DNA of 64,000 nucleotides from Anaerolineae bacterium. Its GTDB lineage: Bacteria > Chloroflexota > Anaerolineae > JAAYZQ01. The stretch lies in contig DAOTXL010000077.1 of NCBI GenBank assembly GCA_034435455.1, positions 9,344 through 73,343 on the forward strand, given 5' to 3'. Below the pieces are notes generated by a model. It made no database searches, was not told where the DNA came from, and saw only the letters and a program-made list of their open reading frames with translations. Made by a program: the position numbers and the translations under genes. Each line of letters starts with the position of its first letter. The first letter of the stretch is position 1. Below, one piece after another: positions 17,158-43,544 of the stretch.

Positions 17158-18441
17158 TCAGGGGTGGCCCTTACCCAGCAGGGGGAGAAAAATCTGACCA
17201 TGCGGATTCTGCACGCAAGCTTTGCACGTGAAATAGATGTCACGGTTATCCAAGAGGGGAGAGGGTTCCTCCCAGGCCAGGTACACAGCCTCGTTACCGA
17301 CTAACAGGTCCAGATTACGGCTCAAACGAGTGGAATTATGGACCTCTTCCGGAGCAAACCAGCCTGTTCCATCCCCTGTGCTGTAATACAGGGCAGCTTC
17401 GGTAACTTCTCCGTCCATCAGAATGGCTGCACTCCAGGCCAGATGTAAGGTATTGGAAACATCAGCTCTCAATCCGATGTCGAAGATGCTCTCGTTTGGG
17501 ACTTGCCTGGTGATTGCTGTATAAGGCGACCAGGTATTGTTTGCCAGCACACGTTCCCAGACCGCCGATCTCTTTGATTCTGTCGAGTAGGGGCTGTCCG
17601 GGTCACACCAGACAAAGTGCAGGCGCCCCTGTTTATCGAAGGCCATGTCAAGATCGGAAGCTACGCTGGAGGTGTAGGACACATTGTAGGAGGCCGTCCA
17701 TCCTGAACCGTCGTTGAACAGGTAGTAGGCGTCGTAGAAATAAGGATCATAGCCGATCCAGGAGCTGTTGGGCCCATAGGCTGCGGCGTGAAGGTGGTTC
17801 TGGTCGTCCACGAGCACCCGAGCCAGGTTGACCCCTAAACTGTAATCCCATGCTGTCAAGGGGGACCAGGCGCCATCGTGGAATTCCGCATAACGATAAC
17901 CGCCGTTCCAGACTACGAACAGCAGGACGTGGTCTGATTTTGGGGTAAGGACCAGGCCATACGCGCCAGGGGTGAACGACGGATTGTGATCCAGAACCTC
18001 CTCCGCCTGCCAGGCATTGTCTCGCCACTGGCGGTACATCAGGTCGCTGCCTTCGTCAGGGGCACCAAGTGCTCGGGCGTAGCGGCGGGTCCAGACCAGG
18101 TGCCCCAGGCCATACTGATCAAAGAGCAAGACTGCCCCGCTGTCTGACCAGTCAAACTGTGACAGATTTTCGATGGCAGTCCACTCCCCTGTGCCCGGGT
18201 CTCTGCGCCTGGTCAGGATCTCCTCATTGCCTGGCCCTTCATCCACCCATACAGCATGGAGGGTAAGCGTGGCATCTTGGGCCAACTGAACCGCTTTCGA
18301 TGTTGCCGGGCTCGACGACAGGTTCTGCGCCGGCGCCCAGCCCGCCGAACCGGTCGCCACGACCAGGCCATACGCCAATATGACAGGTAACAAAATCCAG
18401 GGCAGGACCTTCTGTCCCGATTTCATTTTTGGAGCCTTCAC
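17158..18441 (-). CDS. Exported beta-propeller/BNR-like protein with a C-terminal FLPLL tail
   Basis: Hydrophobic N-terminal segment; repeated D-x-x-G-x-x-H-x-x-W units; ends GQIFLPLLGKGHP. Start could be the ATG at 18426. Confidence 0.6.
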   Translation of the reverse strand: MKAPKMKSGQKVLPWILLPVILAYGLVVATGSAGWAPAQNLSSSPATSKAVQLAQDATLTLHAVWVDEGPGNEEILTRRRDPGTGEWTAIENLSQFDWSDSGAVLLFDQYGLGHLVWTRRYARALGAPDEGSDLMYRQWRDNAWQAEEVLDHNPSFTPGAYGLVLTPKSDHVLLFVVWNGGYRYAEFHDGAWSPLTAWDYSLGVNLARVLVDDQNHLHAAAYGPNSSWIGYDPYFYDAYYLFNDGSGWTASYNVSYTSSVASDLDMAFDKQGRLHFVWCDPDSPYSTESKRSAVWERVLANNTWSPYTAITRQVPNESIFDIGLRADVSNTLHLAWSAAILMDGEVTEAALYYSTGDGTGWFAPEEVHNSTRLSRNLDLLVGNEAVYLAWEEPSPLLDNRDIYFTCKACVQNPHGQIFLPLLGKGHP

Positions 18442-18529
18442 GGCTTGCCTGATCTGACAACCAGAAAGAAGCGAAGGGCCACTGAGACCCCCAGTGGCCC
18501 TTCCAGAGACAGTTCGTCAGTCGTTTGGT

Positions 18530-40788: not shown

Positions 40789-42087
40789 TTAGCTATCACT
40801 CTGGGGAGACGAAGCACGCCTGGCCCCGGTGCGTTGCACCTGGTCGTAGACGCCGCGCAGGACCGGGTAGAGGCGATCCCAGGTGTAATGTCTTTCCACC
40901 CTGGCCCGCCCACGCCGGCCCATCGCCCGGCGGCGCTCCGGATCGGCCAGCAGCGCCTCGATGGCCTGCGCCAGGGCGGCCACATCGCCGAACTCCACCA
41001 GCAGGCCATCCTGACCGTCCTCAATGACATCCGGCACGCCGCCGGCGCGGCAGCCGATCACCGGCCGGCCATAGGCCCACGCCTCCAGGTAGACGATGCC
41101 AAACGAGTCCACCCGCGAGGGCAGGGCCAGGATGTCGGTGGCAGCCAGCAGGTCCTGTTTGAGCGAACCCCCCACCACCCCCAGCCGTCGGATATGCTGC
41201 CGGTGCTCCTCCGGCAAGGCATGATAGACCTGTTCAAAGGTAGAGGGGACCACCGCCGGCCCGGCGATAGCCAGCGTTGCCTGCCGGCCGGCATCCCACA
41301 GGCGCTGCATGGCCCGCAGCAGGTGGACAATGCCTTTGTCATCGGTGAGCGCCCCCAGAAAGGTCACCACCGGCCCGGCGATGCCCTGCTCGGCCCGGAA
41401 AAGGGCCCCGTTGCCACCGCGCAACTCATCCAGGTCCACCCCCATGCCCAGGCGCACCAGCCGCGCCTCCGGCACGCCCAGGCCGGCCAGCGCCCGCGCT
41501 TCGAGGCCGGTCTGGACGATCACCGCCTCGGCATCGCGCAGGACGGCCAGTTGGTGGGGCATGGTGTGGTAGCGCTGCACTGCCCGCCCGCCGATATGGA
41601 CAAACGGGGTGACGACAAAGGGCACTCCGTGGCGGCGGGCGTAGCGATGGCCGGCCAGGAGCAGCCGATCCGCCGCAATATCCACGCCATGCACCAGGTC
41701 AAAACCTGGCCCCAAGTTCTCCAGCGTGTCCTCCAGCGCCGGCACGCGAGGCATGGCCTGGGCCAGCCACCGCAGCAGCGGCCGGGCGATGAGCGGCAGG
41801 CGGGCCAGCTCGATGGCCAGGCGACGCAGCAGGTAAAAGCTCAGCGGGGCAAGGGGCAGGTGCGCCAGCCGGCAACGGACCACCCGCACACCGCCGAGGG
41901 TTGTTTCCCGCTCCGGGAGGCGAGGCTGGCGCGGGTCCCAGAAGCAGTGGATGCCGGTCGCATCGGTGGTGACCACCACCACCTGGTGGCCGTCGCCGGC
42001 CAGCCGCTCCGACATGGCCCGCAGGTAGGTCTGAGCGCCGCCGACGAACGGCCAGTAACCGGGGATGATGTGCAGGATGCAGCTCAT
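40789..42087 (-). CDS. Glycosyltransferase family 4
   Basis: Start MSCILHIIPGYWPFVGGAQ at 42087 (ATGA overlap); DKG, LPSRVDSFGIVYLEAWAYG. Confidence 0.9.
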   Translation of the reverse strand: MSCILHIIPGYWPFVGGAQTYLRAMSERLAGDGHQVVVVTTDATGIHCFWDPRQPRLPERETTLGGVRVVRCRLAHLPLAPLSFYLLRRLAIELARLPLIARPLLRWLAQAMPRVPALEDTLENLGPGFDLVHGVDIAADRLLLAGHRYARRHGVPFVVTPFVHIGGRAVQRYHTMPHQLAVLRDAEAVIVQTGLEARALAGLGVPEARLVRLGMGVDLDELRGGNGALFRAEQGIAGPVVTFLGALTDDKGIVHLLRAMQRLWDAGRQATLAIAGPAVVPSTFEQVYHALPEEHRQHIRRLGVVGGSLKQDLLAATDILALPSRVDSFGIVYLEAWAYGRPVIGCRAGGVPDVIEDGQDGLLVEFGDVAALAQAIEALLADPERRRAMGRRGRARVERHYTWDRLYPVLRGVYDQVQRTGARRASSPQSDS

Positions 42088-43544
42088 CTCACCGCGCCGG
42101 GATAAAAGTCCAACAGGCGCCCCAGGTCGTCGAACCAGCCGCAGGGACAGCCGGTGGGTTCCTCCCCCTCCATGATGACGAACGGCAAGAAGATGCTGTA
42201 CGTGCCGGTGGGCACAACGGAGGGGCGGAGGGCCCCCTCCGTCACCGTCGTCGGCCCGGAGGCGGCAGAGGGTCGCCAGGCAGGGCCGGCCATCTTGACC
42301 GGCACCCATTGCCCTTCGCCTGTAGAGCGGATCACCTGCAGGTAGACGATCTCCAGTTCCATTTCGACCTCGTAGATGCGTTGCAGGAGGCCGTCCGGGC
42401 AGTTGCCCTGGGTGAAGCAGTTGTCATAGGGGATGCCGGCAGGGATGACATATTCCGGCGGGGCCAGTTGGGTCGGATTGCGGAGTTGGGGCAGGAATTC
42501 GCTATTCGGCGCCTGGTCGGCGTCGCGCCAGGCCACTTCCAGGGGAAAGGCGGCGGAAAAGTGCAGGTCGCCGGATAACAGGGCTGTATCCCTGGCCAGG
42601 CGATAGGTGCCCGATGAGAGGCGGTCGGCATTCAGGTAGGGTGGTTTGCCGGACGAATCGGTGTAGGGGTCGCCGGGCATGGGCGGATACTTGAGCAGGA
42701 AATAGTTGGCCCCTGGCGGTATATTGAGCAGGATACGGCCATGCCGGTCGGGGTAGGTGGCGCGCAACTGGTCCATCAACGGCTGAAAGATGCCCAGCCA
42801 GCCGACACCGATGTAGGACTGGAAGGTGGCCTGCTGCGTGCCGGCCACGGAGGCTCGCACGGCGGGGGGGAAGTGCAGAGTAAAGACGCCGGTCAGGGGG
42901 TAGTAGTCCGCCCCTGGCAGCCTGATCCAGCAGCCGCTGTTGGGCGGGAGGGTCAGGCCGTCCGGTCCCAGGGGCAGGGGAAGCGGTTGTCCGACGCCAT
43001 AGTGATCCTCCGGGTAGCGGAAGGGTTGGGTGCTGTTGGCGATGGGCTGGCCGGTGCCCATGCGGGTGGTGTCCAGCCACCAGATCTGCTGTGTCACCTC
43101 CGCCCCGGTCACATCGAATACCCGCAGCGTGGAGGTCGGCACGGCGCTGGCCAGGTGGTCAAAGCGGGGCGGCTGGCCCAGGCAGCCGAACAGGGTCATC
43201 TGGTTGTTGGGCACTCCGGCCACAGTCATAAAACGCGGATAGATGGTGGTGGTGATGACCACCATATCGCCGTGGCGCGACCCTGCCTGGTAGACGACGA
43301 GGCCGGCCCAGTCGCTCCAGGACAGGATCGTGCCCTGCAGGTACTCATCCGGGATGGCGCCGACCAGCTCGACCAGGCTCAGGCCGCGCGGTTCCAGCCA
43401 GTCGGGCATGGCTGCCGGAGTGGGGGCGGCCCCGGCGACCAGGGCGACCAGGGCGGCCAGCAGCAGGGCCAGGCTGAGGAGCAGGTAGCGGCGGCGGGGC
43501 AGCCTGGTTTCGCCAGAGCCACACCCCAGAGGACACTCATTCAC
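42084..43544 (-). CDS. Secreted hypothetical protein with an IFLPFV motif near the C-terminus
   Basis: Signal-like RRRYLLLSLALLLAALVALVAGA; ends YSIFLPFVIMEGEEPTGCPCGWF...; function unknown. Confidence 0.65.
   Translation of the reverse strand: MNECPLGCGSGETRLPRRRYLLLSLALLLAALVALVAGAAPTPAAMPDWLEPRGLSLVELVGAIPDEYLQGTILSWSDWAGLVVYQAGSRHGDMVVITTTIYPRFMTVAGVPNNQMTLFGCLGQPPRFDHLASAVPTSTLRVFDVTGAEVTQQIWWLDTTRMGTGQPIANSTQPFRYPEDHYGVGQPLPLPLGPDGLTLPPNSGCWIRLPGADYYPLTGVFTLHFPPAVRASVAGTQQATFQSYIGVGWLGIFQPLMDQLRATYPDRHGRILLNIPPGANYFLLKYPPMPGDPYTDSSGKPPYLNADRLSSGTYRLARDTALLSGDLHFSAAFPLEVAWRDADQAPNSEFLPQLRNPTQLAPPEYVIPAGIPYDNCFTQGNCPDGLLQRIYEVEMELEIVYLQVIRSTGEGQWVPVKMAGPAWRPSAASGPTTVTEGALRPSVVPTGTYSIFLPFVIMEGEEPTGCPCGWFDDLGRLLDFYPGAVR

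Follow-up and report, generated by a model that had tools for sequence, protein, structure and literature searches.

A C-terminal Leu-Pro tail of secreted Anaerolineae proteins resembles the strand missing from the first repeat of neighbouring ASRAH-like tetrads and may dock there by strand complementation

The stretch of DNA analysed here, hereafter called the window, comprises 64,000 nucleotides of an Anaerolineae contig and bears on its minus strand (approximately 16.4 to 45.8 kb) an envelope glycan cluster, within or at the end of which five exported proteins are encoded: two paralogous proteins composed of four repeats (tetrads A and B) and the products of three genes designated below by their first positions, 17158, 27788 and 42084. 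The last three carry a Leu-Pro (LP) motif, (Y/F)LP(L/F)(V/L), located exactly where it had been placed by a sequence-only reading of this DNA, and the motif corresponds to the strand, beta1, that opens repeats 2-4 of both tetrads and is absent from repeat 1. Docking of such tails into repeat 1 by strand complementation appears, on sequence comparison, to be the best explanation of this correspondence, and we give it an even chance. More tentatively, at rather less than even chance, Anaerolineae and perhaps Chloroflexota as a whole may possess an undescribed display system, in which a nine-residue beta1 tag, borne by numerous exported enzymes and adhesin-like proteins and originating from fission of cargo–tetrad fusions, is captured by completion of a fold; such a system would represent a split-domain, chaperone-free and non-polymerising variant of donor-strand complementation.

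According to structural modelling, the window tetrads are predicted to consist of four beta-sandwich repeats of the ASRT/TM1070-like (ASRAH) type. The AlphaFold2 model of paralogue A built with 22 family sequences is compact (predicted local distance difference test, pLDDT, 77; predicted template modelling score, pTM, 0.78), and its layout includes a signal peptide (residues 1-22) and repeats at approximately 24-129, 130-253, 254-360 and 361-497, all four being detected by the repeat hidden Markov model (HMM). Foldseek comparison of single repeats returned TM1070 (1nc7; probability 1.0, TMt 0.70 over 115 columns) and ASRT, the transducer of sensory rhodopsin in Anabaena (2ii7/8/9; probability 0.99). 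The ASRAH superfamily was defined as an eight-strand sandwich, where each four-strand half contributes strands 1, 3 and 4 to one sheet and strand 2 to the other, with a conserved Trp at the start of strand 1, a conserved Asn at the end of strand 2 and a predicted sugar-binding cleft (de Souza, Iyer and Aravind, 2009; PMC2739507). The same work described TM1070 as a tetramer and reported ASRAH dyads and tetrads in secreted proteins, including Chloroflexi tetrads fused to muramoyl-alanine amidase (PMC2739507). In the family alignment the strand-2 Asn is invariant at N34, N154 and N383 (FQIQN, FAIQN, FAVKN) and is missing from repeat 3 (IQVIAS). Since the FQIQN-type Asn marks the end of strand 2, the LP segment is assigned to strand beta1; in this family it reads (T)VYLPLIMK, with Tyr/Leu-Pro and no Trp, and repeat 1 has no strand 1. 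The Pfam/NCBIfam scan of the tetrads gave nothing above threshold, with only DUF5719 below the cut-off (21.7 vs 26.2 bits; sub-threshold DUF5719 was also found in the relatives P0088, 26.0 bits, and P0148, 22.6 bits), and a PDB sequence-profile search with the repeat alignment returned no match, so that among these searches only the fold comparison links the repeats to ASRAH. The initial designation of these proteins as S-layer-like found no support: Pfam and NCBIfam gave no match above threshold, and the repeat-level Foldseek matches listed are to lectin-like ASRT/TM1070 and include no S-layer protein. A lectin-like tetrad that would bind wall or envelope glycan is preferred, being in better agreement than an S-layer protein with the fold, the context of glycan genes and the fusion partners; on the modelled fold, an adaptor for wall or glycan seems likelier than a lattice.

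Repeats 2-4 of both paralogues open with LILPGIF or LILPGLL, SSLPGLMK and LSLPFVAR(N), as had been read from the letters, and repeat 1 indeed starts with G(G/A)PR(T/N)TGFQIQNL straight behind a typical signal peptide, being short by about 17 residues. The HMM alignment begins at position 14-15 for repeat 1 versus 2-3 for repeats 2-4, and in the AlphaFold2 model of paralogue A, where LILPGIF is a confident strand, DSSP counts eight strands in repeat 2 and seven in repeat 1. This deficiency is family-wide. Profile search of 1.84 billion representative proteins yielded 2468 representative clusters of tetrad relatives (1439 at E ≤ 1e-10). Among 167 of them, to which the repeat HMM was applied, 149 have exactly four repeats, and beta1 is absent from the first repeat in 132, being present in 481 of 520 later repeats; the exceptions with the first repeat located after a signal peptide mostly are signal peptides aligned to the beta1 columns, or gene fragments. 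In tetrads placed behind other domains, beta1 (aYLPNITKNYxGW.T.F.VQN) precedes the first repeat in 13 of 26 proteins; this observation together with the strand-2 Asn homology allows attribution of beta1 to the repeat behind it. Two candidates for a replacement strand were considered. YNGFNY, named in the sequence-only reading as the strand by which repeat 1 might complete itself, was rejected, since VYNGFNY is the aligned counterpart of AYVG, TFDAV and TYSGI in repeats 1-3 and by homology is repeat 4's own beta8. As to mimicry of beta1 by the signal peptide, the occurrence of hhPhh in 38 of 128 tetrad leaders, compared with 10 of 45 and 13 of 99 in controls, is too weak an enrichment for such a claim. 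About 30% of leaders of signal peptide-bearing tetrads (SP-tetrads; e.g., P0078, P0114 and P0172) end with ..L(L/V)P(V/L)A..A-Q and are aligned by the HMM to the beta1 columns; their Pro may be just the proline usual in signal peptides, or it may indicate that the leader is derived from beta1 or takes its place.

The claim that the tail matches the strand absent from repeat 1 was borne out both by comparison of consensus sequences and by a scoring matrix. The beta1 consensus derived from 442 internal repeats is T-V-Y-L-P-L-I-M-K-N-Y-Y-G (TVYLPLIMKNYYG), and the tail follows it position by position: (R)VYLPL(V/I)xK versus TVYLPLIMK(NYYG). For the 17158 protein, nearly all of 49 homologues (39-94% identity) terminate in (V/T)(Y/F)LP(L/V)(V/I)x(K/R) plus 0-5 residues (consensus R-V-Y-L-P-L-V/I-x-K), and the motif is still terminal in seven longer homologues with an inserted PKD-like domain (P0031, P0034, P0039, P0040, P0048, P0055 and P0061). 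The sole orthologue found for the FG-GAP protein encoded at 27788, in locus L006 with a tetrad 52% identical to that of the window, ends with RLYLPLMTRGHPPL. For the 42084 protein, the LP motif is kept in 114 of 120 homologues (35-96% identity, Caldilineaceae included) and is always followed by the module ..GCPCGWFDxLGRMLDFxPGP, so that in this family it is near-terminal and not terminal. When scored with a nine-column matrix made solely from internal beta1 strands, the flagged motif is the best 9-mer of each of the three window proteins (10.7, 12.2 and 9.9 bits), and the C-terminal tail is the best 9-mer of the entire protein in 42 of the 48 homologues scored for the 17158 protein (39-94% identical). 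In the shuffled-protein control the 95th percentile of the best score per protein is 10.5 bits, and about 30 comparable 9-mers are present in all-frame open reading frames (ORFs) of the window; the tail motif is thus regarded as real because of its conservation and position rather than its score in single sequences. A cytoplasmic methyltransferase contains a fourth match to the motif (PYLPLF at 16540), apparently by chance.

The closeness of single-sequence scores to the shuffle threshold would suit the assumption that the tail is a chance hydrophobic end or a relic of a lost C-terminal ASRAH tetrad, functionless now, and the existence of fused proteins composed of cargo, beta1 and tetrad (see below) makes truncation just behind beta1 a plausible origin. 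Conservation of the motif down to 35-40% identity in two families and in one FG-GAP orthologue, its survival upon domain insertion and its recurrence on unrelated protein classes led us to reject this possibility as very improbable. Even less credible is the idea of the tail serving as an integral strand of its carrier, e.g., as a Velcro closure of the propeller. A terminal strand is a frequent means of closing a propeller, and two of three window carriers are propellers, but in the AlphaFold2 model of the 17158 protein, which is a confident propeller (pLDDT 88.9; Foldseek matches to sialidases, probability 1.0), the propeller is already complete, with values above 90, without residues 412-427, which form coil at pLDDT below 50, and the tail is also found behind PKD, DUF11, M4 peptidase, Golvesin_C and other non-propeller domains. 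The Velcro reading was rejected on these grounds, and the tail of the 17158 protein is predicted to be a free, disordered extension of its carrier.

The modularity of the tag becomes evident beyond the window. Scanning of metagenome contigs for DNA encoding Y-L-P-L-V-x-K-stop gave 112 matches with a true stop, including 42 loci (GC 0.45-0.73) where the match terminates a long ORF; low-GC matches were short chance ORFs. Many of these 42 ORFs carry clear signal peptides, and their domains include M4 thermolysin, GHL15 with CBM4_9, Kelch/BNR, FG-GAP, PD40 and beta-helix with DUF11, the tail coming after Golvesin_C in the GHL15/CBM4_9 protein. Five more tail-ending ORFs were detected among 218 other long ORFs of the same loci (about 2%). 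Named cluster members come from Anaerolineaceae, and the initial statement that LPLV-like tails are frequent in secreted proteins of Chloroflexota is thus supported at least for Anaerolineae. No ASRAH repeat was found within 684 kb around the metagenome tails; since a genome has one or two tetrad genes, this result carries no weight either way. The scan also brought to light a very small secreted family (approximately 90-130 amino acids) with a short domain followed by the tail, IGQPDAG..SGGGY.L.GGFW.G......VYLPLV.K at the C-terminus (L074 9971-10360, L031, L018, L016, L039 and L095). Another family, which may resemble Cas1, is devoid of signal peptide and ends with ..LPDYLPLVPK (L013, L021, L069, L117 and L109); it matches the scan pattern by coincidence, and the bare pentapeptide is therefore not specific.

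The tail and the vacancy are also linked by gene order. In six of six lineages with available flanks (window/L001, L006/7, L008, L009/10, L011 and L012), the gene of the 17158-type tail protein adjoins an SP-tetrad gene or is one gene away from it, and this pairing persists where the tetrad scores just E = 1e-35 to 1e-47 against the close-family HMM. In L012, a gene of a PD40-like lipoprotein is interposed between tetrad and propeller. Fusions of the type cargo-beta1-tetrad exist with S8 subtilase, BNR_2, CAP, LVIVD+PKD, SpoIID and caspase domains, and cargo forms possessing the tail only are represented by CAP, BNR-like propellers, GHL15 and FG-GAP. Judging by these architectures, the combination of a tail protein and an SP-tetrad devoid of the first beta1 resembles a fusion protein that has come apart in the turn between beta1 and beta2. 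Only 3 of 167 tetrad proteins themselves end with a tail (P0096, P0132 and P0159), the window tetrads ending at beta8 (VYNGFNY). P0096 and P0132 combine a first repeat lacking beta1 and a C-terminal tail in one chain; these proteins (1701 and 1216 amino acids) have a signal peptide, seven to eleven repeats and the tail ERVAYLPALFKP, an arrangement that could provide head-to-tail polymerisation or intrachain closure.

Some of these architectures, nevertheless, may be viewed differently, assuming that the tail is a sticky beta-strand for another partner, such as the cleft or edge of any ASRAH repeat, another cargo or an envelope component. The tail is disordered, hydrophobic and exposed, tail proteins are many against one vacancy per tetrad, and P0159 bears a tail while offering no vacancy itself. 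Tandem LP motifs point in the same direction: RLYLPLAVRTPLKGYLPIVMHG lies between the signal peptide and repeat 1 of P0134, and TFFPLVVKSKQRTFLPLIVIS occurs at the C-termini of P0244 and P0247 from the 42084 family. The copied strand, however, has a defined place in the fold, only repeat 1 of SP-tetrads regularly lacks it, and genes are paired specifically with SP-tetrads; we therefore rate such binding to another partner as unlikely, albeit the strongest competitor of docking into repeat 1.

Docking by strand complementation may be envisaged as follows. A complete repeat has eight strands starting from beta1 and repeat 1 lacks the first of them, so that four repeats supplied with only three beta1 strands would leave one vacant site per tetrad, the tetrads themselves probably sitting on cell-wall or envelope glycan. 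Many Sec-exported Anaerolineae proteins would end in a free, disordered copy of beta1, (V/T)YLPL(V/I)xK/R plus 0-5 residues; after export this tail might insert in trans into the vacant site, thereby completing repeat 1, and the cargo would then be held non-covalently at the cell surface on a glycan-bound tetrad, the sialidase-like propeller encoded beside the tetrad being presumably its standing partner. The last strand of repeat 1, with YASGAYVG (within residues 111-126), is modelled with pLDDT below 50 although it is invariant in the close family (Y116, A117, G119, Y121 and G123), which is no more than suggestive.

Several points weigh against this mechanism. In the ASRAH fold beta1 and beta8 belong to opposite sheets (PMC2739507), and repeat 1 may simply tolerate seven strands. 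The docking logic itself does not depend on the surface packed by the LP strand, because four repeats still share three such strands. If tails are as common everywhere as in the sampled loci, many cargoes would compete for one site per tetrad and abundant tetrads would be needed. The LP motif is statistically weak in any single sequence; in the 42084 family (homologues P0217-P0336) it has no K/R and is followed by 28-38 further residues; and the tail is also borne by P0159, in which the first repeat does have beta1. When the three cargo proteins of the window were compared by BLAST with fused tetrad proteins, no direct homology was revealed, and because of this the Rosetta-stone argument rests on domain classes, not on orthologues.

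The composition of the very end of the tail brings forward another option, namely an enzyme-handled C-terminal sorting or anchoring signal, cleaved or covalently linked to the wall, with incidental likeness to beta1. The covalent route could be mediated by an L,D-transpeptidase joining the terminal Lys to peptidoglycan, as in the case of Braun's lipoprotein, or by a sortase-like transpeptidase. The tag is confined to the C-terminus or its vicinity in secreted proteins of great diversity, K or R occupies position +4 in 40 of 49 tails of the 17158 family, 18 of 49 stop exactly at this residue, and a gene of YkuD/LysM L,D-transpeptidase is located near the tetrad/propeller pair in L011. For anchoring of the Lpp type, however, it is relevant that Lys is found at +4 in only 32 of 49 tails, Arg replacing it in 8 of the 40, and that three to five residues often stand behind K/R, 19 of 49 tails having three more. 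The 42084 family, lacking K/R and extended beyond the motif, fits this scheme poorly as well. Cleavage by a sortase, which the sequence-only reading had put forward as a way to disprove docking, finds no counterpart in the sequences: neither a transmembrane helix nor a basic tail follows the motif, unlike in sortase, exosortase and archaeosortase signals, no sortase-like or processing gene is conserved in the six neighbourhoods, and no NCBIfam model matches the tail. Since this scheme also leaves the beta1 match, the first repeat without beta1 and the fused forms unexplained, both the sorting signal as such and the covalent routes seem to us improbable, slightly more so than a sticky strand. 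The three-residue extensions commonly finish in Pro (KGHP, KGSP, RNRP and KNKP), and trimming of 17158-family tails down to the terminal K/R is conceivable.

The positions of the tetrads, the tail carriers and the motifs discussed are collected in Table 1.

Table 1. Coordinates in the window of the tetrad genes, the tail-bearing genes, the corresponding strands and motifs, and the surrounding cluster
Feature	Position	Strand	Basis or remark
Tetrad paralogue A, secreted, predicted ASRAH-like, four-repeat	18530..20023	(-)	translation, family alignment, AlphaFold2, Foldseek, repeat HMM
Repeat 1 of paralogue A, proposed acceptor	19637..19957	(-)	opens with GGPRTTGFQIQNL (strand beta2) right behind the signal peptide; no beta1
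beta1 of repeat 2 (LILPGIF), paralogue A	19607..19627	(-)	DSSP strand 133-139, pLDDT ~90
beta1 of repeat 3 (SSLPGLMK), paralogue A	19238..19261	(-)	15.0 bits (beta1 matrix)
beta1 of repeat 4 (LSLPFVAR, then NYWG), paralogue A	18914..18937	(-)	14.5 bits (beta1 matrix)
Tetrad paralogue B, layout as in A	20470..21969	(-)	66% identical to A; repeat 1 opens with AGPRNTGFQIQNL
beta1 strands of paralogue B	21553-21573, 21184-21207, 20860-20883	(-)	repeats 2-4
Secreted beta-propeller of predicted sialidase fold, 427 aa (amino acids), tail carrier, directly downstream of tetrad	17158..18441	(-)	AlphaFold2, Foldseek, gene adjacency
C-terminal tail IFLPLLGKGHP of 17158 protein, proposed donor strand	17161..17193	(-)	protein ends with GQIFLPLLGKGHP
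FG-GAP propeller protein, secreted, probably lipoprotein, inside glycan cluster	27788..29818	(-)	domain search
Tail HFLPLVVK (in ...CHFLPLVVK) of FG-GAP protein, then 13 aa	27830-27853	(-)	
Secreted protein, fold unassigned, 486 aa	42084..43544	(-)	homologue alignment
LP motif IFLPFVIM (in ...YSIFLPFVIM) of 42084 protein, 28 aa before stop	42171-42194	(-)	
Conserved module GCPCGWFDDLGRLLDFYPGAVR behind LP motif of 42084 protein	42087-42152	(-)	
Glycan/cell-envelope biosynthesis genes around exported proteins	22380..45804	(-)	context for the putative glycan-binding role of the tetrad

The window has a guanine-plus-cytosine (GC) content of about 65%, its sequence matches contigs of uncultured bacteria, and the nearest named relatives of its proteins are annotated as "Anaerolineae bacterium". 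The cluster encodes glycosyltransferases of families GT4 and GT2, MurJ flippase, a B12/radical-SAM enzyme, an rSAM-SPASM enzyme and methyltransferases along with a hexapeptide transferase, a sulfotransferase, an LPG_synthase_TM-like protein and a DUF6541 membrane protein. The GC content dips to 0.555-0.60, versus approximately 0.65 elsewhere, at 16001-22000 and 44001-46000; the first dip spans the tetrad paralogues and the 17158 gene and could reflect high expression, codon bias or a different origin. The module terminating the 42084 family reads E-E-x-P-x-G-C-P-C-G-W-F-D-x-L-G-R-M-L-D-F-x-P-G-P, and its CPC arrangement suggests a metal site, a disulfide or a modification site; the rSAM-SPASM gene (32082-33125) belongs to the same cluster and lies 9 kb from the 42084 gene. 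The listed GT4 ORF 40789-42309 (-) shares 226 nucleotides with the 3' end of the 42084 gene, which is conserved, and, as its GT4 domain begins near residue 89, the real start of the glycosyltransferase is probably further downstream. Synteny downstream of the tetrad/propeller pair (window 7417-16091 (-), L001, L006, L010 and L012), comprising sucC-sucD, ferredoxin, subunits of 2-oxoacid:ferredoxin oxidoreductase and a large Fer4/Pyr_redox protein, is kept across all lineages.

Retention of secreted proteins at the surface of most Chloroflexota is poorly understood, and their envelopes are little studied. A literature search with motif strings (YLPLV, FLPLV and others), Chloroflexota sorting signals and donor strands found no description of the tag or of the mechanism, and a paper on the Litorilinea envelope does not mention the motif or tetrad-type proteins in the terms searched. 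If docking does take place, a widespread C-terminal tag, borne by about 2% of neighbouring long ORFs in the sampled loci, would acquire a function, as would a family comprising at least 2468 clusters of uncharacterised proteins, and strand complementation would turn out to be used for cargo docking rather than for fibre assembly. Surface-displayed proteomes of abundant wastewater, sediment and digester bacteria would then be predictable from sequence, and the tag together with the tetrad might be used as a compact coupling tool that is genetically encoded and non-covalent. The conserved tag, the first repeat without beta1 and the conserved pairing of genes deserve to be recorded as new annotations even if docking proves wrong.

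As regards known systems, the tetrads share with described ASRAH proteins the predicted eight-strand sandwich, the strand-2 Asn, the occurrence of tetrads in secreted Chloroflexota proteins and the glycan-related context (PMC2739507). They differ in being stand-alone proteins composed of a signal peptide and a tetrad, the type absent from the list given in that paper, in having beta1 with the YLPL motif instead of Trp, in the first repeat being devoid of beta1 and in giving only sub-threshold matches to DUF5719. Signals of sortase, exosortase and archaeosortase systems (LPXTG, PEP-CTERM and PGF-CTERM) likewise are Pro-containing C-terminal motifs on exported proteins of one lineage, but here neither a transmembrane helix with a basic cluster nor a cognate transpeptidase gene nearby accompanies the motif, and the motif ends the protein. 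Cohesin–dockerin pairs, S-layer homology (SLH) domains with secondary cell-wall polymer and the C-terminal domain of type IX secretion system (T9SS) substrates also employ a modular C-terminal tag on unrelated secreted enzymes and one surface receptor; they have no sequence or fold relationship to the tail or the tetrad, and the tag considered here is only about nine residues long, is unfolded and would bind by completing the fold of its receptor. Donor-strand complementation or exchange is known for chaperone-usher pili, type V pili of Bacteroidota, TasA, and archaeal threads and cannulae. Common to these systems and the one proposed here are a beta-sandwich one strand short and a short terminal peptide of another chain resembling this strand: at the sequence level the acceptor lacks one strand compared with complete homologues, and the donor resembles the missing strand according to the matrix and is free in the AlphaFold2 monomer. 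Donor and acceptor are not combined on each subunit, tails occurring in 3 of 167 tetrad proteins; they belong here to different protein families, and a 1:1 complex of cargo and adaptor would be expected instead of a polymer. The fold is ASRAH rather than pilin or Ig-like, the vacancy is encoded genetically rather than made by a chaperone or protease, and no chaperone, usher or processing protease was seen near the tetrad genes, insertion itself being inferred in our case. The closest geometry is that of type V pili, in which the vacant strand is N-terminal and the donor C-terminal, as proposed for the tetrad and the tail.

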